A stretch of 64,000 bases of DNA from Candidatus Latescibacterota bacterium (GCA_965217585.1 OZ244561.1:5984001-6048000); one strand, 5' to 3'; positions 17,165-64,000 are shown, counted from the first letter of the stretch. Translations and numbers: made by a program. The notes: a model not told the origin generated them from the letters alone.

Positions 17165-17177
17165 AGGGGAGACTTCA

Positions 17178-23003: not shown

Positions 23004-23016
23004 GCTCACGCCCTCT

Positions 23017-43279: not shown

Positions 43280-43287
43280 GAATTGTT

Positions 43288-46673: not shown

Positions 46674-46828
46674 ATTATTCGGAGTATTCCTTTCCCCCAC
46701 CGTTTTGTGGATTGATCAGTCGCTAGCGTCCCGGGATGGTCGTCGCCGGACCCTTCGTTAGCTTTTGCGTCTTTAGGCCGTAAATCCCAAGCCTTTAGGC
46801 TTTGGATATAAGGGTTTGGCTTTAGCCT

Positions 46829-48156: not shown

Positions 48157-48190
48157 GCTTGGGAACAGTCAAACAGTCAGGGTAACGTCG
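48020..48190 (+). ncRNA. Predicted omega/reRNA of TnpB (scaffold overlapping the tnpB 3' end; guide from the flank after TCAA)
   Basis: Inferred from known TnpB biology plus the right-end hairpin. The 5' boundary is a guess. Confidence 0.5.
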
Positions 48191-49026: not shown

Positions 49027-49844
49027 GGGGTTGCCTCCTCCTGAGGAGTCAGGGTGATTTGGTCTTTTTTGACGATTTCTTTGACGTGTTTATAGAATGC
49101 AGGTTCGGTCAGTTCACGCGTCTCAGGCGAGAGTCGATCGAGGATTTCCTGTGGGAATGTTCCCTGGCCAGCGTACTGGGGCTGGTATCTCAGGATGAGG
49201 AAGCGCCGGTCGCGATCTTTGGGCTTCCAGTGCAGGATGCCGTGCGTCAAAAGTTCGGAGATGAAGACCACGTCGCCGGCGCGCGGGGTGATATTGGTAA
49301 AGGCCGGATGTGGTTCGGGGTCGCTTTTATCGTCGACGGGTACGAAGAGATTCGCGGGACGTTCGAATTCGGCTTTGTGCGAGCCGGGGATAACCACCAG
49401 ACCGCCATCGCCGGGCAAGACATCGGTCAAATAGACGAAGGCGATAAACATATCGCAGTAGATGCGCTCGTCGCGGACCTCGTAGCGCGTACTCTGCCAG
49501 CCATACCCTTCGCGGGCGCAGTGCCAGACGCCGAAGTAATCGTGTTTGTGGGTGTTGACCGCCAAGGTGCCATTGTAGAGCCGGGGCTTGTCCGAGGTCA
49601 ATTCCCTGATGATGGGCCAAGTGACCGGGTGTAGGGCCAGGGCTTCGAGGGCTTTGTCAAAGGCGAAGCCGTAGATGTATTTCTCGGGGTTGTCTCCCTT
49701 GAAGCCGGGCGGCCGTTCCTCGTACGGGGTCTGGACATAGCGCTCGGCGGCCTCCTGAGCGTCTTGCAACTCCCGCTCGCTGAGGACATTTTGCAGGTGG
49801 AGATACCCAGTTACATCGAATAGATAGTGCTGTTCAGGAGTCAT
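49023..49844 (-). CDS. PhyH-family oxygenase, MTPEQ subgroup (HCARE motif)
   Basis: MTPEQHYLFDVTGY, WHCARE, VIPGSHK, ELLTHG. Confidence 0.9.
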   Translation of the reverse strand: MTPEQHYLFDVTGYLHLQNVLSERELQDAQEAAERYVQTPYEERPPGFKGDNPEKYIYGFAFDKALEALALHPVTWPIIRELTSDKPRLYNGTLAVNTHKHDYFGVWHCAREGYGWQSTRYEVRDERIYCDMFIAFVYLTDVLPGDGGLVVIPGSHKAEFERPANLFVPVDDKSDPEPHPAFTNITPRAGDVVFISELLTHGILHWKPKDRDRRFLILRYQPQYAGQGTFPQEILDRLSPETRELTEPAFYKHVKEIVKKDQITLTPQEEATP

Positions 49845-49866: not shown

Positions 49867-52698
49867 TCAGGCACCGTAGCCGAGGAGGATGCGCAGGAAC
49901 ATGGAATGCACCTTGAAGTTGCGGCTCTGTTGGTGCGGGTCGAGGAAGCGAATCTTCTCGAAGGTCAGGCCGGCATTCATGATGAGTTCGTAGCCAAAGT
50001 ACTCGGAGCGATTGCTCAAGAGCAGGACGCGGTTTTGACGATCGAAGCTCTTGCTGGGGTCGGTCAAATCCCGGATCTGGTACTTGAGCCAGGGGAATCC
50101 CTGAATTCCACCTTTGACCGAGGTGCGCTCAGTCAGGCGGTACTCGGCTTTGAAGATGGGAATAAACTGGCGCTCGTGCTTCAGGGGAACATCGGTATGG
50201 CGGCGTTCCTTCTTTAAGTAGAGCACCTTGATCTGGGGGGCCACCCGCCAGTGTCGGCTTTCCCAGGTATAGCTGGCCTTGTGCACGCCGACCAAAAGGC
50301 GGATGCGGTCCTGGCGCTGGAAGGTGCCGTCGTCAAATAGGGTCTGGCGCTGGTCGTTGATTTCCAGCTTGATGCGGTTTGCCACCGCTAGTCTGGGCAG
50401 TCCGGTCAGGCGGGTGTTCAGGTAGGTGCGTTTTACCAAGCTGTTGCGATAGTTGAGCTCGTCGGCGATGTCGTCGGCGCCAAACTGGGGCTGGTAGTTC
50501 CCACCGCCCGCCGAGGCGAAGGGGCGGATCGTATCTTCTTTGAAGAGCAAGGTCTCATCCGGGATGTCGTCGCGCACCCGCTTGAGCTCGTGTTCCAGTT
50601 CAAAGGTTCCCAGACCGAATTGCGCCGTCCTGTAGTTGAGGCGCCCGTAGAGCATGTGGTTCCGTCGGCCACCGGCGATCTGTTCGGCGTGTAGCCGTCC
50701 CAGCATGAGCCGTAGCCGTGGCAGCGGCGCGAACCAGCCCATCAGGTGTGCGCCTTTGAGATCGAGATCGTAGGGATATTCGGGATCGAGGTCGTCCTCG
50801 CGTTCGTCCGGCACGTCGTTGTTGTCCATATCGGCCCCGTACACGTAGTTGTCCGACTCGACGTCGAACATCAGAAAAGGCTCGCGATAGTCGGGGATGT
50901 CATTGTAATTCTTGTTGGTATCGGGCAAACCATCCTGGTCTTCGTCTTTGCCCGGGAATATCCCGTCGATATCCTCGCTGTTGGGATTGCCGAACCAGAC
51001 ATCGGCATAGCGGTCGTGGTCGTCGTTGTCCTGGACGAGATGATAGACCGCGGATTCGTTGATGAAGCCCGTGCCCGAGAATCGCTGTTCGAGATTGTGG
51101 ACGGTCAGGAAGGTCTTGTAGTCGGGGCTCATGGAAAAGAGTTCGCCCCCCAATCCCCAGCGCTCAAAGTCCTTGGTGGCCACCGCGTACCAGGCGCGCG
51201 CCTGCTGGTTGTGCCGGGCACCGTTGAGGTCGATACCGGGAAACTGGTTGTGTTCCAAGCTGGTGGCGAATTCGCCCTGGATCTCGAGACCGCGAAAGTT
51301 GACGCTAGCGTCAAAGCTATAAATGGATAGCCCTGTGGGTGCCCCGTATTTGAACTTCACCCAGCGCACATTGGACAGATCTTGGACATTGCCCCGAGCG
51401 CGGGTGACCGTGCGGAAGAAGTCGGCGCGGAAGCGCCGCTCGTAGGGATCGTTGCGGGTCGTCTTTGGCTGTACGTCGGAGATGGATATATGGTAGTCGT
51501 TCCCCATCAGGAAGCCCAACTCCACTGCCTCGATATCTGCGAGATCGCCCAGATCAAAATAGTAGACTAGATAGTCCTCGCCATCGGCGGCATGTACTTC
51601 GTCGGCGAGGAGTTGCGCCCGGCTGGTCAGGCGTGGAATGCTGACCCGCCGGCTGACATCCACGCCGTCCAGATGGTCCTTCAAATACATATAGTCGGCA
51701 TAGAGCGGCAATTCCAATGGCACGGCCGCCACCTCCCAGATATCGCCGATTATTTCGCGGAAAGAACCAAATACCCTGTAGGTGGAATAGGGGGAAGCAG
51801 TGAACCGGTCGCCGACCGAAGTGCGCCCCACCGAGGTCTGCCGTGAGCTATAGCGCACTACGTCGGGACGTATATCCGGGCGTTCCCGGCCGCCAACCCA
51901 CACCTTCACATCAAAGACGCGCGGCCCGCCGCGGTCGTCCTCGGGCGATTCATCGGCGATTTTGACGGCCAGAAATCGGGGTATTCGGCGGGTGTTGGGG
52001 AAGGTGCCTTTGAGGCTCTCCTCGCCCCGGTCCAGATTCGTCGAGTGAATGTTCACGTAGGTAGCGCCGAGGTCGAACACCCCCAAACTGTGCTGGGCAT
52101 GGCCCCCCAGAATAAAGATCGGATTGAGCTTGTGACCGAGGCGCGAGCCGACGGTGGAAATCTGGGTGCGATCTTTCAGCCAATCGATCCGCAGGCCGTT
52201 AAACCCGCTCCAGTAGAGGGTGAGCGGCGTGAACATGGTGAGGATCTCATTGCCGTAGATGGCCCGCGCCGACCAGCCCTTGGCTGCATCGCTGGCCACG
52301 ATCACGCGGTCAAAGACATTGGCATAGCGTCCCTCTTGCAGTTCGAGTTCGCTCTGGCTGCGGCCCGTGGTGGTGCGGTCTTCCTGCCACTGGACCACGT
52401 CAAAACCGCTGATGAGGCGGTCGCCCAAAGGACCGTAAAAGGTGCGGCGCGAAGAGGTGTAGGGGAAAGACGCATCGTCGTAGTTGGCAAAGGGGTGGTG
52501 GGCGTACGTACTGAATCTGGGTGCCAGGGCCAGGAGAAGGGGGTGGGTGGGGTATATCTGCTCGACGGATACGTAGTCCTCTTCCGCTTCGTCTCTGTCG
52601 CGTCGCGAAGACTGGGCTGAGGCCGCGTCTGAACAGTACAGCATGGAAAGCGAGACGACGAGCACCAGACGCCGGATCACAGGAGCGTCAATCTTCAT
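49867..52698 (-). CDS. Uncharacterised ~940-aa exported protein, putative outer-membrane beta-barrel with Asp-rich loop (member 3)
   Basis: Signal peptide; FTPLTL..NGLRID; DNDDHDRYAD..FPGKDEDQDG..PDYREPFL; ends MFLRILLGYGA. Confidence 0.75.
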   Translation of the reverse strand: MKIDAPVIRRLVLVVSLSMLYCSDAASAQSSRRDRDEAEEDYVSVEQIYPTHPLLLALAPRFSTYAHHPFANYDDASFPYTSSRRTFYGPLGDRLISGFDVVQWQEDRTTTGRSQSELELQEGRYANVFDRVIVASDAAKGWSARAIYGNEILTMFTPLTLYWSGFNGLRIDWLKDRTQISTVGSRLGHKLNPIFILGGHAQHSLGVFDLGATYVNIHSTNLDRGEESLKGTFPNTRRIPRFLAVKIADESPEDDRGGPRVFDVKVWVGGRERPDIRPDVVRYSSRQTSVGRTSVGDRFTASPYSTYRVFGSFREIIGDIWEVAAVPLELPLYADYMYLKDHLDGVDVSRRVSIPRLTSRAQLLADEVHAADGEDYLVYYFDLGDLADIEAVELGFLMGNDYHISISDVQPKTTRNDPYERRFRADFFRTVTRARGNVQDLSNVRWVKFKYGAPTGLSIYSFDASVNFRGLEIQGEFATSLEHNQFPGIDLNGARHNQQARAWYAVATKDFERWGLGGELFSMSPDYKTFLTVHNLEQRFSGTGFINESAVYHLVQDNDDHDRYADVWFGNPNSEDIDGIFPGKDEDQDGLPDTNKNYNDIPDYREPFLMFDVESDNYVYGADMDNNDVPDEREDDLDPEYPYDLDLKGAHLMGWFAPLPRLRLMLGRLHAEQIAGGRRNHMLYGRLNYRTAQFGLGTFELEHELKRVRDDIPDETLLFKEDTIRPFASAGGGNYQPQFGADDIADELNYRNSLVKRTYLNTRLTGLPRLAVANRIKLEINDQRQTLFDDGTFQRQDRIRLLVGVHKASYTWESRHWRVAPQIKVLYLKKERRHTDVPLKHERQFIPIFKAEYRLTERTSVKGGIQGFPWLKYQIRDLTDPSKSFDRQNRVLLLSNRSEYFGYELIMNAGLTFEKIRFLDPHQQSRNFKVHSMFLRILLGYGA

Positions 52699-55546
52699 AG
52701 CCTAGGACGATGCGCATAAACATGGAGTTGATCTGCAAATTGCGGGTGCTCTGGCGCGGGTCGAGGAACTCGATCTTATCGAAGAGCAGGCCCGCGTTCA
52801 TGATGAGCTGGTAGCCGAAATACTCGGAGCGATTGCTCACCATGAGGATGCGGTTCTGGCGATTGACGCTCTGGCTCGGGTCGGTCAGATCCCTGAGTTG
52901 GTACTTGAGCCAGGGGAATCCCTGGATGCCGCCTTTGAACGAGGTTCTCTCGGTGAGGCGACACTCGGCCTTGAGGATGGGAATGAGTTGGCGCTCGTGC
53001 GTCAGGGGGACGCTGGTTTTCCGACGCGCTTTTTTTAGATAGAGTACCTTGAACTGGGGTGCTACTCGCCAGGGGCCGGACTGCCAGGTATAGCTGACCT
53101 TGTGCACTCCGGCCAGCAGGCGCACTTGGTCTCGGCGCTGGAAAGTGCCGTCGTCAAATAGACTTTCGCGCTGATTGTTGGTCTCCAGCTTGATTCTGTT
53201 GGTCACTTCCAGGCCGGGCACGGCCCGCAGGCGGGTGTCGAGATAGGTGCGGTGCACCAGACTGTTGCGATAGTTGAGTTCATCGGCCACGCGCTCGGAG
53301 CCGAACTGAGAACTGAAAAATCCGTCGCCAGCCGACTGAAAGGGGCGGTTTGTAGTCTCGCCAAAGCGCACGATCTCGTCTGCAATATCGTCGTGCACGC
53401 GCTTGACCTCGTGCTCCACTTCAAAGACACCTAAGCCAAAATGGGTCACGCGGTAATTCAAACGTCCATAAGCTACGCGGTTGTGGCGGCCGGCGGCGAT
53501 CTGCCCGCTGTGCAGCCGGCCCAACATCAGGCGCAGATGGCGCCAAGGCGCTACCCAGCCCATCAGGTGGGCCCCTGCGAGATCGAGGTCGTAGGGATAC
53601 TCCGGGTTGGTGTCGTCCTCGCGCACGTCGGGCACGTCGTTGTTGTCCATATCGGCGCCGTACACGTAGTCGTCCGACTCGATACCGAACATCAGAAAAG
53701 GCTCGCGGTAATCCGGCGTGAGGTTGTAATTCTTGTTGGTATCGGGTAGGCCGTCCTGGTCCTCGTCCTTGCCCGGAAAGATACCGTCGAGATCTTCGGT
53801 GCGCAAAAATCTGCCGGTTTCGCCGAACCACACGTCCGGGGCGCGGTCGTGGTCGTCGTTGTCCTGGACCAGCGGGTAGAAACCCGTGTCGTTGATCACC
53901 GCGCGGGTGTAGTCCCGGGCGGGGATGTTGGGCACATTGGCGATCAGGTAGGTTCTGTAGTCGGGTTGCATGGAGAAGAATTCGCCGCCCAGCCCCCAGC
54001 GCGCAAAAATCTTGTTGGCCACCAGGTACCAGGCGTGCCCCCGCTCGTTGAAGCGGTCGCCGGCGAGGTCGAGGTTGGGGAATTGATTGTATTCTAGGCT
54101 GCTGGCGAATTCGCCCTCAATCTCGAGGCCGTGAAAGTTGGCGTGGGCATTGACGCTGTAGATGGATAGTCCGGTGGGCGCGCCGTAGTGGAACTTTTCC
54201 CAGCGCACGTTGGACAGATCCTGGACATTGCCCGGGGCGCGAATAATGGTGCGGAAGAAGTCGGCGCGGTACTGGCGCTCGTAGGGGTTGTTGCGGCCCG
54301 CCTTGTTCTGCACCTCTGAGATGCTTATCTGATAGTCGTTACCCACTAGGAAGCCCAGTTCGACCGCATCGACTTCCTGCAGCTCCCGCATGTCGAAGTA
54401 GTAGATCAGATAGGCGTCGCCGTCGGCGCTGGCTACTGCGTCGGACACGATTTCAGCCTGCGCGGTCAGGCGAGGGATGTTGGCTCGCGTGCTCACATCC
54501 TCGCCGGCTAGGTGATCCCTCAGATAGAGGTAGTCGGCAAAGAGCGGGATCTCGCTTGGCTCGCCCAAGAGCCTGAAAACGCCGGGGGGGTTCTTGAACG
54601 CCGCGGAGTAGGGGTTGGGGGTGAAGCGGCCGTTCGCCGCGGTGCGGCCCACGCTCGTGTCCTTGGAGCGGTAGCGCACCACGTCGGGTCGGATGTCGTC
54701 GCGCCGCTCGCCGTTGATCCACACGGCCACGTCGAAGACTACGGGACCACCGCGCTCGTCTTCGGGCGACTCGTCCGACACCCTGATGGCCAGCCACAGG
54801 GGCGCTTTGCGGCTGGTGGGAAAAGCGCCCTTGAGACTCTCCTCTCCTTGGTCCAGGTTGGTGGAGTGGATGTTCACGTACGTGGCACCGAGATTGAGCC
54901 CGCCCAAGCTGCGCTCAAAGTGCCCACCCAAGATGTAGATTGGGTTGAGGTCGATGAAGGGGCCGGTGAGGCCCACCTCGCGAAAGGCGCCGCGCGGATA
55001 GCCCGGATGGCTGATGCGAGAGCTTATGACCGAGATTCGGTTCCGCTCGGTCATCCAGTCGAGGCGGATGCCGTTGAGGTTGGCCCAGTAGAAGGTCAGC
55101 GGCGTGAACATGGTCCTGATCTCATTGCCATATATGGCGCGTCCCGACCAACTCTTGGTGGCATCACTGGCGATGACCACATTGTCGAAGATGCCGTAGT
55201 AGCGGCCGTCGTGTTTGAAGAGCTGGCTGTCGCTGTCGCCGGTGGAAGAGCGGTTTTCTTCCCACCAGACTACGTCAAAACCGCTGATGAGACGGTCACC
55301 TAAAGGGCCGTAGAAGGTGCGGCGCGAAGAGGTGTAGGGGAAGTCCGAATCGCCGTAGTTGGTGAAGGGATTGTGGGCGTAGGTAGTAAAGGTAGGTGCT
55401 GGGTCCAAGAGTAAAAGGCGGGCAGGATAGACCTGCTCGACAGCGACGTAATCCTCGTCCTGCTTCAGACCTTGGCTGTAAGCTGATTCTGCGCAGTAGG
55501 CGGCGAGGAACAGGAAACTCGCGATTGTGGATCTTGTTCCTCTCAT
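52688..55546 (-). CDS. Uncharacterised ~950-aa exported protein, putative outer-membrane beta-barrel with Asp-rich loop (member 4)
   Basis: Signal peptide and the same motifs; ends MFMRIVLGYED. Overlaps the member 3 start by 11 nt. Confidence 0.75.
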   Translation of the reverse strand: MRGTRSTIASFLFLAAYCAESAYSQGLKQDEDYVAVEQVYPARLLLLDPAPTFTTYAHNPFTNYGDSDFPYTSSRRTFYGPLGDRLISGFDVVWWEENRSSTGDSDSQLFKHDGRYYGIFDNVVIASDATKSWSGRAIYGNEIRTMFTPLTFYWANLNGIRLDWMTERNRISVISSRISHPGYPRGAFREVGLTGPFIDLNPIYILGGHFERSLGGLNLGATYVNIHSTNLDQGEESLKGAFPTSRKAPLWLAIRVSDESPEDERGGPVVFDVAVWINGERRDDIRPDVVRYRSKDTSVGRTAANGRFTPNPYSAAFKNPPGVFRLLGEPSEIPLFADYLYLRDHLAGEDVSTRANIPRLTAQAEIVSDAVASADGDAYLIYYFDMRELQEVDAVELGFLVGNDYQISISEVQNKAGRNNPYERQYRADFFRTIIRAPGNVQDLSNVRWEKFHYGAPTGLSIYSVNAHANFHGLEIEGEFASSLEYNQFPNLDLAGDRFNERGHAWYLVANKIFARWGLGGEFFSMQPDYRTYLIANVPNIPARDYTRAVINDTGFYPLVQDNDDHDRAPDVWFGETGRFLRTEDLDGIFPGKDEDQDGLPDTNKNYNLTPDYREPFLMFGIESDDYVYGADMDNNDVPDVREDDTNPEYPYDLDLAGAHLMGWVAPWRHLRLMLGRLHSGQIAAGRHNRVAYGRLNYRVTHFGLGVFEVEHEVKRVHDDIADEIVRFGETTNRPFQSAGDGFFSSQFGSERVADELNYRNSLVHRTYLDTRLRAVPGLEVTNRIKLETNNQRESLFDDGTFQRRDQVRLLAGVHKVSYTWQSGPWRVAPQFKVLYLKKARRKTSVPLTHERQLIPILKAECRLTERTSFKGGIQGFPWLKYQLRDLTDPSQSVNRQNRILMVSNRSEYFGYQLIMNAGLLFDKIEFLDPRQSTRNLQINSMFMRIVLGYED

Positions 55547-55782
55547 GGCGGTACTCGGCTGGACTATTTGTCGGAGCCTTCAATCGCACCTGCGGGCACG
55601 CCCCTTCCGCAGGACTCGCGCCCAGCTCCAACTCGGTGCTGGCTATACAGCTATCTATCCAAATGCCTCTGGAAGCCTCTGTCAACGGTCGATGTAAAAG
55701 AAAGGTCACGGGACTCAGGCAAGCACGGGATGTTACAACAGGCAGTGGCGATAGCTCCGGCTGGCAAAGAAATAAAAATTTG

Positions 55783-55863
55783 TTGACTATCAGTAGGTAT
55801 AACTTTATATATAATATAGGCTGATATGTAAATGGGTTTACTGTTGCCTGCGTGTATACACGC
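55783..55863 (+). promoter_or_regulatory. Candidate sigma70-like promoter and palindromic operator in an AT-rich divergent intergenic region
   Basis: TTGACT (55783), 17 nt, then TATATA, with TATAAT at 55810. 14-bp palindrome gcgtgtatacacgc at 55850-55863. Confidence 0.4.
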
Positions 55864-55963
55864 GAAAAGGAAGACATAAAAAGCGGCATAAATAAAATTA
55901 GAACAATAAGTTGACCTATTTTCTTCCCAATCAATTCGCTTACTCCCAACAAGGAGGAGTATC

Positions 55964-57925
55964 ATGAGAAAGTGGAACCGTGCAGTTGCTTTAGTGGGAG
56001 CCTTGGTCATCGCCAGCGCGGCAGTGGCCCAGGACGAAATAGTGCCGAGGTGGGATCCGAACAACTGGAATAGCGGCGATCCCACGCCGATGTCGCTAGA
56101 AGTGACAGAAAGTCTGCCGACTTATAGCGGCAGTGGTTCGGTGGAGATTCCCTTTACCATCGACCAGCCCGCGGCCGTGCATGTGGCCGTCTACTCCACC
56201 GGGGCCAATCCCGCGCCGCGGCCCTTCATCCGCGACCAGCGCACCTTTGGCTATGACGGCCACTGGGATGGGGTCAACCAAGTCTATGTGGGCACCGAGG
56301 GCGGCATTGCCCGCGGTGAGAATACCTTTATGGACACGATGGTGTGGCGCTCCCCGGACGAAAATCTCTACTTCGATGCGGGTTCGCACACGATCACTTG
56401 GCCCGGGATCGATATGAACAGCAACCAGATGCCGGCGGGTGACTATACATTCTACGTTCTCACCTTCAACGACCAGAGCGTCACTACCGTGGGTCGGGCG
56501 GCCGCGCAGTGGGGGGTGGAGTGGGAGATCAACTTCGACGCCGATCCGCCGGAAATCTGGGGCTGGGCCACGTTCGCCGACGGCAGTGATGCAGCCTTGA
56601 ACAGTACCTTTATAAAGAGCACCATTGGCACGGACTGGCGTTCCAGCCCAGATGCGTACGAGAGCTATACAGCCGGAGAGGTGTACACCGCCATCGCCAC
56701 GGCCAATGGCAACCCCGAGGGCGTGATCACTCAGTGGGGTTTCCTGATGGATCCGCGCGCCAAAGGCCGCGATTTCTACCTCACCGATTTCACCGGGCCG
56801 GCCCCGGGGCTCACTAAGGTGCGGCTGAACGACGACGGAGTAGTCGAAGCGGTTAGCGAATTCGGCGAAAACGGGTACGTGTTCCAGCCGGCGCGGACCT
56901 ACCAGGTCGAGTGGGTATTTGACCAGCTCATCAATATCGACGCCAACCGGACGGATCTCGTTGACGAGGTGATCTACAGCGATCCAGATACAGGAGAGCG
57001 CCTACGCGCCCACGATTTCACCGAGGTCTTCGGCGGCGAGGTCCTGCGCGACGACGAGCCGGTTCCCTTTGTGGGCGGCATGTCCTCCTTTGCCGTCAAT
57101 GAGAACGGGATCTGGGCCACGTCGCACTCGTCGCGCAGCTTCCACGTGTTGCGCGCCGATCACGATGGCAAGGAGATCTGGGTCAATGCCAACGGCGACG
57201 GCTGGATCGACACCATCTTGTGGGACCACGACGACGACCCGGAGACGGGTGTGGAAATGATCATCGGTGACCACTGCAAGGACTCGGCGGTGGGGACCTT
57301 CGACATGTACTTCTGCTCGCCGGGCACCCGCGGTTCGGGCGAGGGCAGAGTGGGGATCGTACTGGGGCCCGACGGCAGCGGCTTCGCGCGCTTGAAGATC
57401 CGCAATGCAGTCAACCTGGAATCCGAGAATTCCAACGAGTTGCAGTACCACGAATTGGGCGGCCCGTACGATGGCTGGTACAAGTCCATAGGCCACGATC
57501 CCACCAAGCGCCAGGACCAGATCGAAGCGAACGAGTTGCCCTATGAGCCCGCGCCGGGTTGGGTCGTCCACATTCCGGGTCGGATCCGCAGGGGTAGCAT
57601 TGGCGACGATGGGACTGCCGTGTTAGCGGTAAGCGATAATACGCCCGATTCTTATAGCCTAGGCAACGCCTATCCCAACCCGTTCAACCCGGAGACTACC
57701 ATCGAGTTCAAGCTGCCGCAGGCCGGCCACTCCGTGCTTTCGGTTTACAACGCGGTCGGGCAGGAGGTGGTGAGACTGGCGGACGAGCTCCTCGAAGCTG
57801 GCGTGTACCAGGCCAATTGGGATGGACGCGACAAGAGCGGTCAGCAGGTCTCGAGCGGCGTGTATATGTACACGCTCAAGGTCGGGGACTTCGCAGAGAC
57901 CAAGCGCATGACGTTGTTGAAGTAA
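55964..57925 (+). CDS. Secreted acidic protein with C-terminal T9SS type A/FlgD-Ig sorting domain and a second N-terminal FlgD-Ig-like domain
   Basis: AAGGAGGAG SD; signal peptide (AAVA-Q); C-terminal YPNPFNPETTIEF...WDGRDKSGQQVSSGVYMYTL...KRMTLLK; N-terminal IPFTI...AGSHTITWPGIDMNSNQMPAGDYTF. Confidence 0.88.
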   Translation: MRKWNRAVALVGALVIASAAVAQDEIVPRWDPNNWNSGDPTPMSLEVTESLPTYSGSGSVEIPFTIDQPAAVHVAVYSTGANPAPRPFIRDQRTFGYDGHWDGVNQVYVGTEGGIARGENTFMDTMVWRSPDENLYFDAGSHTITWPGIDMNSNQMPAGDYTFYVLTFNDQSVTTVGRAAAQWGVEWEINFDADPPEIWGWATFADGSDAALNSTFIKSTIGTDWRSSPDAYESYTAGEVYTAIATANGNPEGVITQWGFLMDPRAKGRDFYLTDFTGPAPGLTKVRLNDDGVVEAVSEFGENGYVFQPARTYQVEWVFDQLINIDANRTDLVDEVIYSDPDTGERLRAHDFTEVFGGEVLRDDEPVPFVGGMSSFAVNENGIWATSHSSRSFHVLRADHDGKEIWVNANGDGWIDTILWDHDDDPETGVEMIIGDHCKDSAVGTFDMYFCSPGTRGSGEGRVGIVLGPDGSGFARLKIRNAVNLESENSNELQYHELGGPYDGWYKSIGHDPTKRQDQIEANELPYEPAPGWVVHIPGRIRRGSIGDDGTAVLAVSDNTPDSYSLGNAYPNPFNPETTIEFKLPQAGHSVLSVYNAVGQEVVRLADELLEAGVYQANWDGRDKSGQQVSSGVYMYTLKVGDFAETKRMTLLK

Positions 57926-57976
57926 GGGACAGCTAATAGATGGGCGCTTAGCGCGTCCGACTTGTAGGTTATTTGG

Positions 57977-58018
57977 AAATCAGGAAGGGATTTGCGCAAA
58001 TCCCTTCCTGATTTTTTT
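57977..58018 (+). terminator. Rho-independent terminator
   Basis: 38-bp perfect palindrome aaatcaggaagggatttgcgcaaatcccttcctgattt running into T7, about 50 nt after the stop at 57925. Confidence 0.8.
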
Positions 58019-61000
58019 ATGGCAGACAGATTTGATCACTTTGGGGTTAGGGTTTTGTCCAGCGGAAACGACAGGGGCCAGTACATCAGACCGATCCTGA
58101 TGACGCTCTTCCTCCTTTCTGGGGGGTGTGGGCTGATCTACCAAGTGGTCTGGATGCGCATGCTGGGATTCGCAATGGGCAGTACTGTGCTCGCAGTGAG
58201 CACCGTACTGACTGCGTTCATGGCGGGATTGGCCCTGGGAAGTTTCTCTTTTGGCCGCCTTATCGACCGCCGCGCAGATGCCCTGAAGGCCTATGCTTAC
58301 TTGGAAATAGGGATCGGGCTTTGCGGCTTGGCCATGCCGACATTGCTGCTGGGATTGAGTCCGATCTATGTCGGGATGACTCGTCTCCTGGGCGACTCTT
58401 ATGCGGCGCTTTCTCTGGCGCGCTTTGGTCTGTGCTTTGCGCTGCTGGTGGTTCCCACGACCCTGATGGGAGGTACCCTGCCCGTTCTCAGCAAGTTCTT
58501 CGTGGCGCGCAAGGAGGTGCTGGGCTGGAATGTCGGGGTGCTCTACGCGGTAAACACGCTGGGGGCCGTAATCGGCTGTTTTGCCGCCGGGTTTGTGCTA
58601 ATCGGGACTGTGGGGGTGGTGGAGACGGTCTACATCGCCGCCGTGCTCAATCTTCTCGTAGCTGCAGGAACCCTGGTGCTCAGAGCGGTTGCGCCGGATG
58701 CGGAGAGCGGCCTAGAGGCAGAGCCAGCAGGGCAAAAACAGGAGCAGCGTCCCAGACTTCCGGGCCTAGCGCTTTTAATTTTGTGTGCTTTCGGCCTTTC
58801 GGGCTTTGCGGCGCTGGGCTACGAGGTGATCTGGTCGCGGATTCTGGTATTCTTCGTGGGCAATTCGACCTATGCCTTCAGCGCTATGCTGACGACCTTC
58901 CTGTTGGGACTGGCCCTGGGTAGTTTTGTAGCTGGCAAGCTCGCAGATCGCAGGGGCGATCTGGTTGGGGCGTTCGGTGTGGTGGAGATACTCATCGGGT
59001 TATCGGCCCTGGTGGGCATGGTGCTCCTGAGGGGAACCATAGCGGCAGAGGGCCTCTGGGTGATGCAGGAACAGACGGCTTTTAGCTGGTACGGCGAGAT
59101 CGGGAAGATGTTTAAGGCGTCCTTCGCGGTTATGTTCGTCCCAACCTTGTTTATGGGAGCGACCTTTCCGCTGGCCAGCAAGGCCTACGTGCGCTCCGTC
59201 CAGGAAGTAGGACGGGATATCGGTGCCGTCTACTCGGTGAACACCTTGGGAGCCATCCTCGGGGCCTTTATCTCCGGTTTTGCCATCCTGTCCTGGCTCG
59301 GCGTGCAGGGAGCGATCATCTTCCTGGCCGCGATCAATGCTGTGGTGGGCTTGGTTATCCTCTTGGTCAATCGCACTTCGACGGCCAGGCTGCGCTTCGT
59401 CGTTGCGCCGCTTCTGGGGGCTGCGGTCTTTATCACCGCCATCTTCCTTCCATCCCACTTTGTGTTGCCGAGCGACTTCGAGGGCAAAGAGGACGCCGTG
59501 CTCTTCTACCAGGAAGATCGGGCCGGCACCGTCAAAGTCTATCGCAAGCCGGATGGCCATCTGCTCATCAGCGTCGATGGCAACACCATCGGGGATACGA
59601 GGGACGATCTGGATGCCAAGCAGCGCTTGTTGGCCCATCTGCCGCTCTTGCTGGCTCCCGATCCCAAATCGATTCTAGTGGTCGGCCTGGGCAGTGGCAT
59701 TACGGTGGGCGCCATGACTCTCTACGAAGAGGTCGAACTCATCGACTGTGTCGAGATCGTGCCGGGCGTGGTGGAAGGGGCCAAGTACTTCGAGGCCCAC
59801 AACCGCGGTGTACTTAAGAAACCACAGGTGAACGTGGCAGTCGCGGACGGCATCAACTATCTGCTGACCTCCGACGGGAAGTACGACGTAATCTCTTCGG
59901 ATGCCAAGCTCAATCCAGCCTATACGGGCAACGCGGTCTTCCTCTCAAGCGACTACTACCGCCTGTGCCTAGAACGGCTCTCGGAGGACGGCATGATGGT
60001 GCAGTGGATCCCGCTGCATCTGCCGCAGGACAGCTACCAGATGGTACTCAGGACCTTCGCCGAGGTCTTTCCATACGGGACGATCTGGTTCTTCCCCGGT
60101 AAACACACCATCCTGATCGGGACCCGGCACAAACTGGAGATCGACTTGGCGCGCTTGTGGCGGCGCTTGCAGGTATCCGAGGTGCGGGGGGACCTAGCGC
60201 GCTTTGGCCTGGACCATCCACTGGCGCTTCTGAGCGGCTACCGGGGAAAGCGTGCAGACATCCTCCGCTACGTCGGCAGCGGCGAATTGAGTAGCTGGAA
60301 TCATCCCTACATCGAGTTCCAGACGCCGCGGGGCCTGGCGCTTGCGACGGGAAAGAACCAAGCTGGCAACCTGCGCGGGATAAGACAGATCAGAGGAGAT
60401 ATTCGCTCGCATCTTACCACAACTGCCGAGCATGAATTCGAGCAGATCCGGGAGCAGTTGCAGCGCTATGTCCAATCGACCGAGCTGCTCATAGAAGGTC
60501 TGGCGCAAGCGCAAGAAAGTGGCCTGCTGAGCTATGGAGAGGCTTTCTTCCGGCAGATCCTGCGCTCCCACCCGGAGGACAGGCGGGCGCAATACTGGCT
60601 GGCCCGTTCCATGCGGGAGCGCAGAGATGTCCAGAAAGCTACAGCCGGGGTCAGAGACGCTAGAGCTTATATAGTGCTGGGCAACACTTTTTTGACAGAG
60701 GGTGCCTTCACCAAGGCGCTGGAGGCCTTTGCGCGGGCAACCGAGATAGAGCCGGAGAATGCCGTGGCGCACTACCACTTGGGGGTGGTCAGCGAATACA
60801 GCGACGAGGGCCGGCGCTACGGTCCAGGCTTTGCGCGTGCCCGCGCCATTGCCGCGTACGAAAAGGCGATCTCGATTCGGAAAGACTACGTCGAAGCCCA
60901 CTACAACCTCGGCGTGGTCTGTCAGCATAATGAAGAGGGGAAACGCTATGGACCGGGCGCGCAGGTCGAGCGCGCCAGCGCAATCTTCAAACGGGTCGTA

Positions 61001-61168
61001 GAGATGGCACCGATGCACGCCGCGGCGCACAACAACTTAGGGGCGATCTACTTTCACCAGAAACTCTATACCAAGGCGAGAGCCGCCTGGGAGCAAGCGC
61101 TCAAAGGCAATCCGAATCTGCGCTCAGCGCATATCAATCTGGGCCTTCTGGATGAGAGGGGATGGTGA
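58019..61168 (+). CDS. Fused MFS-like membrane domain / spermidine-synthase-like SAM-binding domain with C-terminal TPRs (copy 2)
   Basis: SGGCGLIYQVVWMR, LYAVNTLGA, VGLGSGIT, VEIVPGV, ADG, DVISSD; TPR tail. Start uncertain (58019, 58055 or 58100). Confidence 0.9.
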   Translation: MADRFDHFGVRVLSSGNDRGQYIRPILMTLFLLSGGCGLIYQVVWMRMLGFAMGSTVLAVSTVLTAFMAGLALGSFSFGRLIDRRADALKAYAYLEIGIGLCGLAMPTLLLGLSPIYVGMTRLLGDSYAALSLARFGLCFALLVVPTTLMGGTLPVLSKFFVARKEVLGWNVGVLYAVNTLGAVIGCFAAGFVLIGTVGVVETVYIAAVLNLLVAAGTLVLRAVAPDAESGLEAEPAGQKQEQRPRLPGLALLILCAFGLSGFAALGYEVIWSRILVFFVGNSTYAFSAMLTTFLLGLALGSFVAGKLADRRGDLVGAFGVVEILIGLSALVGMVLLRGTIAAEGLWVMQEQTAFSWYGEIGKMFKASFAVMFVPTLFMGATFPLASKAYVRSVQEVGRDIGAVYSVNTLGAILGAFISGFAILSWLGVQGAIIFLAAINAVVGLVILLVNRTSTARLRFVVAPLLGAAVFITAIFLPSHFVLPSDFEGKEDAVLFYQEDRAGTVKVYRKPDGHLLISVDGNTIGDTRDDLDAKQRLLAHLPLLLAPDPKSILVVGLGSGITVGAMTLYEEVELIDCVEIVPGVVEGAKYFEAHNRGVLKKPQVNVAVADGINYLLTSDGKYDVISSDAKLNPAYTGNAVFLSSDYYRLCLERLSEDGMMVQWIPLHLPQDSYQMVLRTFAEVFPYGTIWFFPGKHTILIGTRHKLEIDLARLWRRLQVSEVRGDLARFGLDHPLALLSGYRGKRADILRYVGSGELSSWNHPYIEFQTPRGLALATGKNQAGNLRGIRQIRGDIRSHLTTTAEHEFEQIREQLQRYVQSTELLIEGLAQAQESGLLSYGEAFFRQILRSHPEDRRAQYWLARSMRERRDVQKATAGVRDARAYIVLGNTFLTEGAFTKALEAFARATEIEPENAVAHYHLGVVSEYSDEGRRYGPGFARARAIAAYEKAISIRKDYVEAHYNLGVVCQHNEEGKRYGPGAQVERASAIFKRVVEMAPMHAAAHNNLGAIYFHQKLYTKARAAWEQALKGNPNLRSAHINLGLLDERGW

Positions 61169-61213
61169 ATATGCAAGAATTCTTGGACATGAAGAAAACA
61201 GCCATGCTGTGCT

Positions 61214-64000
61214 CTATTCTTTGTAGCCCAGAATGACGCGCATGAACATGGCGCTGGTCTTGCGGTTGCGGGCGCGCTGGCGCGGGTCGACAAATTGGAT
61301 CTGCTCAAATGTCAGTCCCGCATTCATAATGAGATCGTAGCCGAAGTACTCCGAGCGATTGCTGACAAAGAAGGTGTGGTTCTGGCGATTGAAACTGTTG
61401 GCTTGGTCGGTCAGATCCCTGACTTGGTATTTGAGCCCCTTGAGCGGGAATCCCTGAATCCCGCCTTTCACCGAGGTGCGCTCGGTAAGGCGATACTCGG
61501 CCTTCACAATGGGCATGAGCTGGCGCTCGTGTCCCAGCGGTACGGCGGTTTCGCGCCGCTCCTTTTTCAGGTAGAGCACCTTGAACTGCGGCATCACCCG
61601 CCAGCGCCGGCCTTTTAAGCCATAGCTGACCTTGTGTACCCCGGCCAAAAGGCGAAGGCGATCCCGGCGCTGGAAGGTGCCGTCCTCAAAGAGGGTGCGG
61701 CGCTGCTCGTTGAGCTCCAGCTTGATGCGGTTCTCTACCACCAGTCCGGCCAACGGCGTGGTGCGGCTTTCCAAGTAGGTGCGGTGCACTAGGCTGTTGC
61801 GGTATCTCAGTTCATCCGCCACGCGCCGGGAGCGAAACTGGGCAGAGTACCACTGACCCCCGGAGCTAAAGGAACGACTTGAGCCTTCGTTGAACTGCAC
61901 GGTCTCATCGGCAATATCGTCGCGCACCCGCTTGATCTCGTGCTCTACCCGGAACGCGCCGATTCCAAAGGCTGCCCCCTGGTAACTGGCGCGTCCGTAG
62001 ACCATGCGGTTGCGGTTCCCACCGGCGATTTGTTCGCTGTGCAGCCGCCCTAGGGTCAGGCGCAGATGCCGCAGCGGCTCGGCCCAACCCAGCAGGTGGC
62101 CTCCCTGCAGATCGCGGTCGTAGGGATATTCGGGGTCGAGATCGTCTTCGCGATAATCCGGCACGTCGTTGTTGTTCAGGTCGGCCCCATAGACGTAGTC
62201 GTCCGACTCGACATCGAACATCAAGAAAGGTTCCACATAGTCGGGAAGGGGGTTGTAGTTGCGGTTGGTATCGGGCAGGCCATCATGGTCCTCGTCTTTG
62301 CCGAGGAATACGCCGTCGGGGTCTTCTTCGCCGGCGAAAACGTCTCCGAGTACCATGCCCAGCCACACGTCTGGAAAGCGGTCGTGGTCGTCGTTGTCCT
62401 GCACTAGGTGGTAGATGCCGGTATTATTGGCAAAGCCCCACTCGTTGTAGGTTTCAAAGTCTTGCGGTATGTGGGCGAACATGGAGGTCTTGTAGGCCGG
62501 ATTCATGGAAAAAATCTCACCGCCCACTCCCCAGCGCTCGGCGTCTTTGGTGGCCACCAGGTACCAGGCCCGCGCTCGCTTGTCGTGCCGGGCGCCATCG
62601 AGTCCGGGATTGGGGTACTGGTTGTGTTCGACGCTGGTGGCCCATTCGCCGGCGATATCGAGGCCGAGAAAGTTCAGATTGGCGTTGACGCTGTAGAGGG
62701 ACAATCCGGTGGGTGCCCCGTACTTGACCTTTACCCAGCGCACATTAGAGAGGTCCTGGACATTGCCCGGTGCCCGGGCGACGACGCGAATGATTTCGGC
62801 GGTAAACTGGCGCTCGTACGGATCGCGGCTCCTTCCCTGCTGGTGCAACTCCGAGAGGCCTATCTGGTAGTCGTTGCCCACCAAAAAGCCCAATTCGACG
62901 GAATCGACCGCCTCGACATCGCGCATATCCAGATAGTAGATCAGGAAGTCGTCGCCATCTGCCCGGTGCACCTCGTCGGGCGGCAACAACTCGACGTTGG
63001 CGGTGAGGAGTGGGACGCTGACTCGCTTGCTCACATCTGTGCCGCGCAAATGGTCCTGCAAATAGAAATAATCGGCAAAGAGCGGAATCTCCAGAACCTG
63101 ATCTGCAACCCGAAAAAGAAAACCCCTGTGAGCCTCGTTCGGACTGGCCGTAGTGTAAAACCGCGAGGCATAGGCATTGGGCGAAAATCGGCCCGTCCCG
63201 GCACTGATGCGTCCCACCGCCGTCCGCACGGTCCTGTGGCGCACCACCTCGGGCCGCAGGTCGTCGCGCCGCTCGCCATTGACCCACACCGCCATATCGA
63301 AGACCACCGGCCCGCCGCGGCCGTCCTGCGGCGATTCGTCTGCTATTTTGATGGCCAAGATGTCCGCCGGGTCGCGGCTTATGGGCAGCGACCCCCGCAG
63401 TTCTTCTTTGCCTTGGGCGACGTTGGTGGAGTGGATGTTGACATACGTGGCACCGAGGCGGAGCAGTCCAAGGGCACGCTCGGCGTGTCCCCCTAGGATA
63501 TAGACCGGATTGAGGTCTCTGAACTCCTCGCCATCGTGTTCGCGGAAGGGGCCGTGGGGATAGCCAGGCCGGCTGACGCGCGAGCCGATGACCGAGATCT
63601 GGGTGCGCTCGGCCATCCAGTCCAGGCGCAGACCATTGAGTCCGGCCCAGTAGAAAGTCAGGGGCGTGAACATGGTGCGGATTTCATTGCCAAAGATGGC
63701 CCGCCCCGACCACCCGGCCGCGGCGTCGCTGGCCACTATCACGCGGTTGAAGATCGAGTAGTAGCGGTTGTCGCTCTTGAAGATCCAGCTATCGCTGCCC
63801 TGCTCCGCGGAGCGGTTTTCCTGCCACCAGGCCACGTCAAAGCCGCTGATCAGCCGGTCGCCCAAAGGTCCATAGTAGGTGCGGCGCGACGAGGTGTAGG
63901 GAGGGACCGCGTCGTCGTAGTTGGCAAAGGGCGTGTGGGCATAGCTGGCAAAAGCGGGGGCCGGGTCCAGCAGGAAGGGGTGATGAGCGGGGTAGATCTG
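61214..64000 (-). CDS. Uncharacterised exported protein, putative outer-membrane beta-barrel with Asp-rich loop (member 5); N-terminus beyond the window end
   Basis: Frame is open to 64000 (QIYPAHHPFLLDPAPAFASYAHTPFANY..., collinear with members 3 and 4). Same motifs; ends MFMRVILGYKE. Confidence 0.78.
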   Translation of the reverse strand, partial: QIYPAHHPFLLDPAPAFASYAHTPFANYDDAVPPYTSSRRTYYGPLGDRLISGFDVAWWQENRSAEQGSDSWIFKSDNRYYSIFNRVIVASDAAAGWSGRAIFGNEIRTMFTPLTFYWAGLNGLRLDWMAERTQISVIGSRVSRPGYPHGPFREHDGEEFRDLNPVYILGGHAERALGLLRLGATYVNIHSTNVAQGKEELRGSLPISRDPADILAIKIADESPQDGRGGPVVFDMAVWVNGERRDDLRPEVVRHRTVRTAVGRISAGTGRFSPNAYASRFYTTASPNEAHRGFLFRVADQVLEIPLFADYFYLQDHLRGTDVSKRVSVPLLTANVELLPPDEVHRADGDDFLIYYLDMRDVEAVDSVELGFLVGNDYQIGLSELHQQGRSRDPYERQFTAEIIRVVARAPGNVQDLSNVRWVKVKYGAPTGLSLYSVNANLNFLGLDIAGEWATSVEHNQYPNPGLDGARHDKRARAWYLVATKDAERWGVGGEIFSMNPAYKTSMFAHIPQDFETYNEWGFANNTGIYHLVQDNDDHDRFPDVWLGMVLGDVFAGEEDPDGVFLGKDEDHDGLPDTNRNYNPLPDYVEPFLMFDVESDDYVYGADLNNNDVPDYREDDLDPEYPYDRDLQGGHLLGWAEPLRHLRLTLGRLHSEQIAGGNRNRMVYGRASYQGAAFGIGAFRVEHEIKRVRDDIADETVQFNEGSSRSFSSGGQWYSAQFRSRRVADELRYRNSLVHRTYLESRTTPLAGLVVENRIKLELNEQRRTLFEDGTFQRRDRLRLLAGVHKVSYGLKGRRWRVMPQFKVLYLKKERRETAVPLGHERQLMPIVKAEYRLTERTSVKGGIQGFPLKGLKYQVRDLTDQANSFNRQNHTFFVSNRSEYFGYDLIMNAGLTFEQIQFVDPRQRARNRKTSAMFMRVILGYKE

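Follow-up and report, generated by a model that had tools for sequence, protein, structure and literature searches.

Evidence for a split lectin-barrel cassette, with a SpeE-like fusion protein as likely facultative accessory, in a Candidatus Latescibacterota genome

According to two reports (PMC9143113, PMC12618676), type-B cargo proteins of the T9SS and PorP/SprF-like proteins bind each other, by which the cargo is anchored, as in SprB-SprF of Flavobacterium johnsoniae and PG1035-PorP of Porphyromonas gingivalis. F. johnsoniae is reported to have twelve type-B substrates. A comparable layout, in which one to three giant barrel genes directly follow the gene of a discoidin protein whose T9SS tail is type-B-like, forms a genome-wide amplified system in a Candidatus Latescibacterota bacterium (GCA_965217585.1); two of its loci, A and B, lie in the window analysed here (64,000 nucleotides, OZ244561.1:5984001-6048000). 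The account favoured here, with rather more confidence than doubt, is that (i) the window carries a split cassette of this lectin-barrel system, (ii) the system operates by a proposed uptake mechanism, and (iii) a fused MFS/SpeE-like/TPR protein (S) is a facultative accessory.

Giant barrels and their tailed partners

The ~950-aa proteins of both loci are predicted from modelling to be a family of giant outer-membrane beta-barrels, of which a census of the genome counted 80 ORFs in 60 arrays. Searched against Pfam (E<=0.01) and NCBIfam, the five barrels of the window gave no match. The AlphaFold2 model of B3a (pLDDT 80.1, pTM 0.79) matched large outer-membrane barrels only, namely SlpA (8ae1, E 1.5e-9), MtrB, TonB-dependent transporters, LptD and SusC; no specific relative emerged from Foldseek or VIA-align, which returned generic outer-membrane barrels (Z 11.5-14.1, rmsd 5-13 Å). 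The barrels span ~900-1000 aa, with ~28-30 strands as counted from DSSP of the B3a model, and carry an inserted domain (about residues 235-445) and an Asp/Asn-rich loop. Plug and TonB-receptor domains of Pfam were found in none of the five window barrels, nor in a re-scan at E<=10. PF11751 (PorP/SprF) was absent from two barrels re-scanned at E<=10, and a whole-genome search for it returned no match, which is no proof of absence as the control was silent in every genome. SlpA_C (PF21620) reached 13.6 bits in B1 and 16.2-25.1 bits in three relatives, all below the cut-off of 35.

Directly upstream of the barrels, a same-strand gene for a tailed protein is present in 42 of the 60 arrays, and these 42 upstream proteins, once their tails are removed, form one blastp family. 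A gene of this partner family lies within 1 kb of 44 of the 51 barrel loci, and about 169 partner lectins are encoded in the genome. Among 20 partners scanned, 13 matched F5/8 type C and 15 matched CHU_C at E<=1e-3 (10 of the 20 above the 27-bit cut-off); no domains other than F5/8 type C and CHU_C/FlgD_ig, and in particular none like SusD, were seen in them. The partner of locus A (P) scores 43.5 bits for F5_F8_type_C_2 and 30.8 bits for CHU_C (both Pfam), 433.8 bits with the partner HMM, and 17.5 bits for TIGR04131 (cut-off 35). The T9SS translocon is present, with TIGR04189 (SprA) summing to 604.8 bits over one 2153-aa frame located at 3.68 Mb. In a different family of the phylum (genome G003), an HMM search of five loci detected no partner or tail match beside the barrels; thus, the lectin pairing may be confined to one lineage.

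Gene content and origin of loci A and B

Table 1. Features of the two loci and their flanks (window coordinates)
Feature	Position	Strand	Basis
DUF6785/DUF6784 inner-membrane transporters (four)	5067-7037, 7120-9102, 9133-11097, 13252-15255	+	Pfam
462-aa protein	21699-23087	-	weak TonB_C match (22.5 bits, below the 24.6 cut-off)
DUF4159 protein	23017-24276	-	Pfam, 115.8 bits
DDE transposase, between DUF4159 and P	24426-25592	+	Pfam DDE_Tnp_1, 51.5 bits
P, partner lectin, 689 aa, discoidin (F5/8 type C) domain and CHU_C/type-B-like T9SS tail	25842-27911	+	
B1, predicted position-1 giant outer-membrane barrel, 911 aa	27927-30662	+	family alignment, tree
B2, predicted position-2 barrel, 906 aa	30655-33375	+	tree
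TPR protein, 1088 aa, BamD/YbgF-type repeats	33400-36666	+	Pfam and NCBIfam TPR matches
DUF5683 small membrane protein, last gene of the cassette	36684-37244	+	Pfam, 30.4 bits
S_A, fused MFS/SpeE-like/TPR protein, 929 aa, convergent on cassette end	37248-40037	-	NF037959
PhyH genes (two), after B3b	49023-49844, 48169-49026	same as B3b	
B3b, predicted position-3 barrel, 943 aa, second in tandem pair	49867-52698	-	family alignment, tree
B3a, predicted position-3 barrel, 952 aa, chosen for modelling	52688-55546	-	AlphaFold2
X, secreted protein, 653 aa, type-A T9SS tail	55964-57925	+	TIGR04183
S_B, fused MFS/SpeE-like/TPR protein, 1058 aa	57992-61168	+	NF037959
B3c, predicted third position-3 barrel, 964 aa	61214-64000 (whole gene to 64108)	-	tree

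The five genes of locus B (49867-64108) are all present where the earlier note had placed them (Table 1). B3a and B3b overlap by 11 bp and are divergent from X across a 418-bp gap, S_B starts 66 bp past X on the same strand, and B3c extends beyond the window edge. The three barrels are 64-66% identical among themselves and 32-33% identical to the two of locus A. Directly upstream of B3c, beyond the window, a gene (L058:158-2533) encodes a 791-aa, (alpha/alpha)6 lyase/hydrolase-like protein with a Pectate_lyase_2 match of 102.7 bits. RNA-library contigs (four runs, three studies) touch each locus-B gene at an identity of at least 95%, and one contig of 2032 nt contains the whole of X, with 37 nt ahead of its start and 33 nt beyond its stop; the X-S_B junction is bridged by none of the contigs listed. 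As these contigs reveal neither transcript ends nor expression levels, nothing is concluded on co-transcription. When 55300-61400 was scanned for promoters and terminators, the counts were similar to those in shuffled sequences (3 vs 1.8 and 7 vs 4.9).

At locus A, P ends 16 bp upstream of B1, and B1 overlaps B2 by 8 bp. The 1088-aa TPR protein has 10 paralogues in the genome, seven of them within 25 bp of a barrel, and an orthologue (56% identity) at the equivalent position in a relative, G062; it belongs to the core of the full cassette. The G062 orthologues of P and DUF5683 are 52% and 45% identical, respectively, and two further DUF5683 paralogues terminate other cassettes (4.38 and 7.05 Mb). 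No orthologue of S_A was found in the G062 region, only paralogues of 30-33% identity. The DUF4159 gene and the 462-aa gene (21699-24276) are a conserved cassette flank: their G062 orthologues (68% and 55% identical) come after X, and DUF4159 genes flank barrels in G003 too.

X and P, the tailed proteins of the two loci, differ outside the tail. X scores 59.6 bits for FlgD_ig, 35.8 for CHU_C and 35.6 for TIGR04183 (T9SS type A sorting domain, cut-off 23), while its N-terminal 565 aa correspond to no known family, and a PDB sequence search with X returned nothing useful (best E 0.72). Leads for X from the Atlas were tailed and NHL-type clusters (0.85-0.90). The profile comparison of X and P gave an alignment limited to 75 tail columns. 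X is the sole outlier among 43 barrel-flanking tailed proteins and is missed by the partner HMM; its five paralogues lie 1.8-10.7 kb from barrels, and its G062 orthologue (44% identical) is divergent from P. X recurs as a neighbour of the cassette and is not the partner lectin.

The relative G062 carries a single locus in which X(+) is divergent from P-B1-B2-B3-TPR-DUF5683(-), every one of which has a counterpart in the window at 44-59% identity; the one B3 of G062 is the best match for all three locus-B barrels (53-55%). The barrel tree resolves position-1, -2 and -3 clades (supports 1.0, 1.0 and 0.91), in which B1 is sister to G062 B1 (1.0) within the position-1 clade (1.0), B2 is sister to G062 B2 (1.0) within the position-2 clade (1.0), and B3a, B3b and B3c are monophyletic in-paralogues (0.993), sister to G062 B3 (1.0). 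A paralogous cassette at 7.03-7.05 Mb runs X-P-B-B-B-TPR-DUF5683 on a single strand. Gene order and tree together point to loci A and B as two fragments of one canonical cassette composed of X, P, B1, B2, B3, TPR and DUF5683. The cassette is broken in this genome: locus A retained P-B1-B2-TPR-DUF5683, with the DDE transposase in the place that X holds in the G062 gene order, and locus B holds X and the three B3 in-paralogues. One relative and the paralogous cassettes are the basis for taking this order as ancestral and not as a fusion derived in G062.

The earlier note had taken locus B for a repeat of the locus-A module and the recurrence for a sign of functional coupling. By the G062 gene order and the barrel tree, B instead complements A, and two pieces of one ancestral cassette do not amount to independent evidence. 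The statement that the same three gene types occur in both loci holds for the barrels and the SpeE-like fusions and fails for the tailed proteins, as X and P have only the tail in common. The view that this is not a recent duplication was correct: the 32-33% identity of the barrels and the tree both speak against recent copying of A into B. For annotation, an apparent recurrence within one window may reflect a cassette that was split and not a repeated module.

The SpeE-like fusion protein and its distance from barrels

S_A and S_B share 32% identity, and both have a membrane domain, a SpeE-like domain and C-terminal TPRs. They pass the cut-off of 40 for NF037959 (fused MFS/spermidine synthase) at 133.7 and 139.6 bits, respectively, and S_B has a Spermine_synth (Pfam) score of 67.3 bits. 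For the SpeE equivalog TIGR00417 the two proteins score 81.2 and 71.1 bits, below the cut-off of 249.55. Nine S paralogues do not conserve the acidic motif that follows the 'YD.I' strand and has a catalytic role in SpeE. A helix count from crude hydropathy, in which one helix was missed and one Rossmann strand miscounted as a helix, would put the SpeE-like domain on the periplasmic side, where SAM is not expected. The S genes are not distinguishable from the NF037959 family; the novelty is that, in two lineages of this phylum, they lie statistically closer to barrel clusters than chance predicts. A literature search found no paper using the term 'fused MFS'.

In this genome (G000), five of the nine S copies lie within 10 kb of a barrel where 1.7 are expected (P 0.017), and all nine lie within 25 kb, a zone covering 0.33 of the genome (P 5e-5); these distance tests assume that paralogues and neighbours on the chromosome are independent, with S_A and S_B lying 18 kb apart. 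Control families were not enriched near barrels at 5, 10 or 25 kb (sulfatase 18/46 and PhyH 44/141 at 25 kb), which speaks against pure chance co-location of S and barrels. Within 25 kb of a barrel are six of 11 S genes in G062 and seven of 13 in G061. Linkage is tight in G003, where four of six S genes are within 5 kb of a barrel (P 1.7e-4, paralogues again counted as independent), corresponding to four of 10 barrel loci, separate from one another and differing in gene order. The S-to-barrel distances of 0.5-3.4 kb in the five G003 loci examined imply that S may be more integral than rated here. In G063, S sits between barrels, and in G055 it is 2.5 kb from one. Counted from the barrels, S is within 10 kb of only six of 51 loci and within 25 kb of only one of 10 TPR-type cassettes. 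The closest S_B orthologue is 33 kb from the orthologous cassette in G062, no barrel lies within 10 kb of the S_B orthologues (74-76% identity) of three Latescibacterota MAGs, and 26 loci of other genomes that carry S relatives all had barrel-free flanks. Within the phylum, S is present in 14 of 16 genomes of one family (f2), all 16 being free of barrels, and another (f8) has barrels in five of six genomes and S in none of the six. In a further family (f9), S genes and barrels were on different contigs among the matches listed.

These distributions bear on two other readings of S. An obligate module of barrel, tailed protein and S, with S performing a SAM-dependent modification coupled to capture or export, is improbable: although S is nearer to barrels than chance in G000 and G003, is flanked by barrels or 2.5 kb from one in G063 and G055, and follows X at 66 bp on one strand in locus B, it is missing within 10 kb of 45 of the 51 barrel loci and within 25 kb of nine of the 10 TPR-type cassettes. 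The 33-kb separation in G062, the phyletic decoupling in f2 and f8 and the barrel-free flanks of S relatives elsewhere also count against such a module, as does a SpeE-like domain far under the equivalog cut-off and, by the crude topology, probably periplasmic. The opposite reading, that S is functionally unlinked and its nearness reflects common accessory, envelope-gene-rich chromosome regions and inherited synteny, is unlikely though deserving of some weight. It would account for the usual distances of 6-24 kb, beyond operon range, for an S-barrel adjacency that is not kept between G000 and its closest relatives, and for an S family that is widespread in phyla without barrels, each family also occurring alone within the phylum; it does not fit the lack of enrichment of the sulfatase and PhyH controls (46 and 141 copies) or the return of tight linkage at the four G003 loci in another family. 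Under the favoured account of a split cassette, S lies outside the core, as a probable facultative envelope accessory tending toward cluster edges.

Of the three-part coupling suggested in the earlier note, the proximity survives (S is nearer to barrels than chance in G000 and G003), but S is no core part (6/51 loci, 1/10 cassettes). The tie of the barrel family to secreted tailed proteins, also suggested there, is upheld by the partner gene within 1 kb in 44 of 51 loci. Tested against chance, the partner adjoins barrels far more often than expected (42/60 arrays), and S lies within 10 kb of a barrel for 5/9 copies against 1.7 expected. As far as searched, barrel-linked S in G003-like genomes is the first reproducible genomic context of its family within the phylum.

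Proposed uptake route and comparison with known systems

The four DUF6785 genes of the window lie ~10 kb upstream of locus A, and a fifth lies 2.5 kb past B3c, beyond the window. The genome holds 77 copies, 36 of them within 10 kb of a barrel (2.75-fold enrichment, P 1.5e-9), and 32 of the 51 barrel loci have one within that distance; DUF6785 is a commoner third partner of barrels than S. The DUF6785 model (pLDDT 87.4) matches barley Yellow Stripe 1 (YS1) at TM 0.58-0.64; four copies gave no match to Pfam OPT (PF03169) at E<=10, and a PDB sequence search gave none. Atlas leads for DUF6785 were 'peptide transporter' clusters (0.77-0.79), later backed by the fold match. Glycan enzymes flank the loci, i.e., a rhamnosidase, sulfatases and the lyase-like gene directly upstream of B3c. 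Sugar capture and uptake are the probable role of the cassette.

In the proposed mechanism, the T9SS, whose SprA translocon is present, would export the lectin P, and the cognate barrel would hold it on the surface, as SprF holds SprB. The barrels, in which no plug domain was detected, may also let captured glycan fragments inward, and the OPT-fold DUF6785 permeases would carry the fragments over the inner membrane. S would most likely reach toward outer-membrane parts via its periplasm-facing SpeE-like/TPR module, and would not make spermidine. A bolder version, which is improbable, is an undescribed trans-envelope glycan-uptake machine of T9SS lectins on plug-less barrels and OPT-fold permeases, in which S, at a subset of loci, would bridge the periplasm with its outward-facing SpeE-like/TPR module and contact the barrel in the role that TonB plays in SusC systems. 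The reverse direction of transport is very improbable. If the barrels were exporters, a polymer would be secreted through a TPR-scaffolded barrel in the style of AlgK-AlgE, PelB or PgaA, and the scaffolding in the periplasm would fall to S or to the 1088-aa TPR protein. In favour of this, seven of 10 cassettes have a large TPR protein after the barrels. The PgaA, PelBC and AlgE barrels are also among the fold matches (Z 11.5-13.6), but ordinary porins listed with them match at least as well. The cassette showed no gene for a glycosyltransferase or synthase, the flanks are catabolic (sulfatases, rhamnosidase, lyase-like) or encode importers, and 80 copies suit substrate diversity better than polymer export.

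To our knowledge, polymer capture at the surface by FCB-group bacteria outside Bacteroidota is poorly understood. In the present genome, one recurring layout takes ~80 giant barrels, ~169 tailed lectins and 77 OPT-fold permeases. As in SprB-SprF and PG1035-PorP, a CHU_C/type-B-like tailed protein is encoded beside a dedicated barrel gene, the pairing is repeated often, and SprA is present. By contrast, the barrel is not a PorP/SprF protein; it has ~900-1000 aa, an inserted domain, an Asp/Asn-rich loop and no PF11751 match. Unlike in PorP/SprF pairs, each lectin is accompanied by one to three barrels, the copies number about 80 per genome, and the host is outside Bacteroidota. Similarly to SusC/SusD, a glycan-binding surface protein and a large barrel stand in tandem, in dozens of copies beside glycan-degrading enzymes, and SusC chains are in the B3a fold list (5fq6, 8aa0), with a TM of only 0.17-0.20 (TonB-dependent transporters, 0.17-0.22). 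Unlike SusC/SusD, the cassette is without plug, TonB-receptor and SusD-like domains, and the binder, encoded first, is a T9SS-tailed discoidin protein and not a lipoprotein. SlpA of Deinococcus radiodurans (8ae1) is the best Foldseek match of the barrel and, in VIA, the structure with the most aligned residues (408; Z 13.8), but at a TM of only 0.23, and no SLH domain or coiled-coil stalk was found in the barrel. DUF6785 resembles OPT/YSL transporters (barley YS1, 7wst) in a whole-length fold match (E 2e-8), its sole clear match, and differs in its 12% identity and its 77 copies in one genome. The layout as a whole has features of T9SS cargo-anchor pairs and of Sus-type loci alike, without qualifying as a member of either, and, if the mechanism is true, surface glycan capture would have had a second origin built on another protein chassis.

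Genes of locus B and the barrel family

All five genes named for locus B in the earlier note, which read this locus as a repeat of a three-part module of locus A (a ~950-aa family, here called barrels, a tailed secreted protein and a SpeE-like fusion), are present (see the table). The fusion protein S_B and its locus-A counterpart S_A pass NF037959 (139.6 and 133.7 bits, respectively; cut-off 40), in keeping with a second membrane-fused SpeE-like TPR protein in locus B. The strong divergence that had been noted between copies is also borne out, with barrels 32-33% identical between the two loci, compared to 64-66% among the three of locus B, and the two fusions 32% identical. Each gene of locus B is partly covered at >=95% identity by metatranscriptome contigs (four runs, three studies), although these contigs reveal neither transcript ends nor levels. 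Long RNA contigs (1065 to 2032 nt, two studies) cover the tailed protein gene X, over 55927-57958, at a word depth of 22-172, while the short contigs of its neighbours are at 2-7; contig depth cannot rank genes.

Features of the window
Feature	Position	Strand	Remark
Two sulfatases, BNR/sialidase-like protein	316-1893, 1787-3016, 18924-20450		around the loci
PhyH genes, ten	4251-5009, 16406-17999, 20457-21263, 41283-43117, 45837-46700, 48169-49844		
DUF6785/DUF6784 genes, four	5067-15255		
DUF4159	21699-24276		span includes the neighbouring 462-aa protein; flanks barrel locus
DDE transposase	24426-25592		between DUF4159 and P
P, partner lectin	25842-27911	+	locus A
Alpha-L-rhamnosidase	43222-45840		around the loci
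TnpB, IS605-type	47035-48156		OrfB_IS605 and Cas12f-like TNB domain
Barrel	49867-52698	-	overlaps next barrel by 11 bp
Barrel	52688-55546	-	first of the overlapping tandem genes
X, tailed protein	55964-57925	+	divergent from barrel pair, 418 bp gap
S_B, 1058-aa MFS/SpeE-like/TPR fusion	57992-61168	+	66 bp behind X
Fifth barrel	61214 to past window end		convergent on S_B; complete gene 964 aa

The window barrels have no match in Pfam and NCBIfam scans. An AlphaFold2 model of the tandem pair's first gene product (pLDDT 80.1, pTM 0.79, 52 aligned sequences) has some 28-30 long strands (counted from DSSP by the author), together with a signal peptide, an inserted mixed domain (residues ~235-445) and an Asp/Asn-rich loop (~560-655). 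Foldseek matches include SlpA (8ae1, E 1.5e-9, TM 0.23), MtrB, TonB-dependent transporters, LptD and SusC, while VIA-align gives Z scores of 11.5-14.1 to all kinds of porins, the longest alignments being to SprA (413 residues) and SlpA (408 residues). Since no structural match stands out, the protein is predicted to be a large outer-membrane barrel that belongs to no described family. Of 61 genomes sampled from the phylum, 36 encode the family.

A cassette probably split in two

The nearest S_B orthologues (74-76% identity) are from three Latescibacterota MAGs, and 80 kb of one of these, G062, was compared with the window. G062 holds a single locus, in which X (plus strand, 44% identical to window X) precedes DUF4159 (68%) and a gene of 440 aa (55%), and the minus strand carries, divergent from X, the lectin gene P (52%), the barrels of cassette positions 1 and 2 (59% each), the barrel of position 3, a 1081-aa TPR protein (56%) and DUF5683 (45%). 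This sole third barrel is the top match of all three locus-B barrels (53-55% identity). In a phylogeny of 26 barrels, made up of the three from G062 and those 23 from the window's genome that score >430 bits, positions 1, 2 and 3 form clades with support of 1.0, 1.0 and 0.91; the first and second locus-A barrels each group with their G062 equivalents (1.0 for both), and the locus-B trio (0.993) groups with the third G062 barrel (1.0). A paralogous cassette at 7.03-7.05 Mb has the identical seven-gene order with all genes on one strand, and 7 of the 10 paralogues of the cassette TPR protein lie <=25 bp from a barrel. Because of the G062 locus, the barrel tree and the paralogous cassette, the recurrence is attributed to one broken cassette, not two independent instances of a module; by gene order and phylogeny, loci A and B are most probably its halves, with the third barrel triplicated in B. 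The DDE transposase of the window stands in the place of X in G062. This gene and the TnpB gene flank edges of the rearranged pieces.

Partners of the barrel

In a census of six-frame ORFs of the whole 7.32-Mb genome, HMMs built from window genes find 80 barrels (60 tandem arrays, 51 loci), 271 C-terminal T9SS-type tails and 9 long MFS/SpeE-like fusions (S). With copy numbers this high for barrels and tails, chance needed an explicit test. Abundance, which the earlier note had held would undercut its reading, applies to the barrels and tails but not to S, and chance is still exceeded: S lies within 10 kb of a barrel in 5 of 9 cases, with 1.7 expected by random placement (P 0.017), and within 25 kb in 9/9, where the genome fraction is 0.33 (P 5e-5). 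Sulfatases (8/46) and PhyH (22/141), taken as controls, show no enrichment at 10 kb, where the genome fraction is 0.17.

Of the 60 barrel arrays, 42 are directly preceded by a tailed gene of the same orientation, in most cases <60 bp away. Compared without their tails, 42 of 43 flanking tailed proteins are a single blastp family (P); the sole outlier is X. The P-family HMM finds 175 ORFs in the genome (169 tailed), recovers the locus-A gene (433.8 bits) and misses X, and the profiles of X and P align over 75 tail columns only. Among 20 scanned P proteins, 13 match F5/8 type C (discoidin) and 15 match CHU_C (10 above cut-off); P tails carry 'FTPNGDG.ND', as do CHU_C tails, whereas that of X starts 'YPNPFNP' and passes TIGR04183 (type-A sorting domain). 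The SprA translocon is found in the genome. From the family, profile and tail comparisons, locus A has the true partner lectin and locus B another secreted protein; thus, of the gene types said to be shared by the two loci, the barrel and the fusion hold and the tailed protein does not. Functional coupling, deduced in the earlier note from recurrence, is retained for barrel and tailed protein, apparently via P rather than X, but the two loci of the window are not independent instances of it.

That S is a core third part is harder to sustain. Besides the proximity in the window's genome, on gene maps 6 of the 9 S genes border or fall within contiguous clusters of P, barrel and DUF6785 genes, and S is within 25 kb of a barrel in 6/11 cases in G062 (P 6e-4) and 7/13 in G061 (P 4e-3), related genomes that are hence not independent. 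In G003 (3.1 Mb, another family of the phylum), four of six S on the large contig are <=5 kb from a barrel (contig fraction 0.059, P 1.7e-4), and 4 of 10 barrel loci have S inside 5 kb; gene order differs among these four loci (in one, two barrels diverge from S across 312 bp), the HMMs of this analysis detect no partner or tail gene at them, and neighbours include DUF4159, CBM9-like and DUF6785 genes. Against a core role, S lies within 10 kb at just 6 of 51 barrel loci, and among the 10 TPR-type cassettes that of the window alone has S within 25 kb (35.8 kb being the next shortest distance). At 26 loci where other genomes encode relatives of S, the three close orthologues among them, flanks of up to 10 kb contain no barrel; a distance of 33 kb separates the S_B orthologue of G062 from the cassette, and no S_A orthologue is found in the compared region. 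Among the 61 genomes, one family has S in 14/16 and barrels in 0/16, while two others have barrels in 5/6 and 2/2 and S in none. S is read as a facultative accessory with lineage-dependent linkage. A genome of a further family has three consecutive fusion genes on a single contig (G040:C48:16599-31052), and G061 and G062 each have two S gene pairs, one 6-8 kb and the other a few hundred bases apart.

The two window S proteins score 81.2 and 71.1 bits with the SpeE equivalog model (cut-off 249.55). A glycine-rich motif and an acidic residue behind the second strand are conserved in all nine paralogues, but the acidic motif after 'YD.I', catalytic in SpeE, is not. With 13 hydrophobic helices ahead of the SpeE-like domain (a crude count, made by eye on the alignment) and alternating K+R counts in the loops, the SpeE-like and TPR parts would be on the periplasmic side.

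DUF6785/DUF6784 proteins (77 copies, nearly the number of barrels) are a commoner third partner: 36/77 are within 10 kb of a barrel (2.75-fold enriched, P 1.5e-9), and such a gene is present inside this distance at 32 of 51 barrel loci. Another copy, beyond the window, is at L058:2659-4677. Pfam describes a family of unknown function, and Pfam OPT does not match these proteins. Because the only whole-length fold match of the model (pLDDT 87.4, pTM 0.89) is the barley Yellow Stripe 1 transporter (TM 0.58-0.64, E 2e-8), they are predicted to be OPT/YSL-fold secondary transporters.

Neighbourhood and known systems

Uptake is favoured over export since the flanking genes are catabolic (sulfatases, a rhamnosidase and, immediately before the fifth barrel, a lyase/hydrolase-like gene); the sulfatases, of which the genome has 46 ORFs, and the rhamnosidase fit a sulfated-glycan-degrading lifestyle. 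DUF4159 also flanks barrel loci in G062 and G003, with three in tandem at one G003 locus; positions outside the window include L059:3404-7569 and L062:10534-11865. A 462-aa protein beside the window DUF4159 scores 22.5 bits with TonB_C, under the 24.6 cut-off; this protein may be what energises the system. PhyH (phytanoyl-CoA dioxygenase family; 141 ORFs by an HMM from eight window copies) is not enriched near barrels; still, two trail the tandem barrel pair of locus B on the same strand.

Literature searches, with subscription journals outside their scope, returned no paper on Latescibacteria or Latescibacterota with the T9SS and none with the term 'fused MFS'; a term search of the accessible text of Youssef et al. 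2015 (PMC4454575) finds type IX secretion and discoidin unmentioned. Although membership tests place the barrel in neither the PorP/SprF nor the SusC/SusD pair, the nearest described logic, in the accessible parts of PMC9143113 and PMC12618676, is that of type-B cargo with its cognate PorP/SprF protein, and the second nearest to the lectin-barrel pair is that of SusC with SusD.
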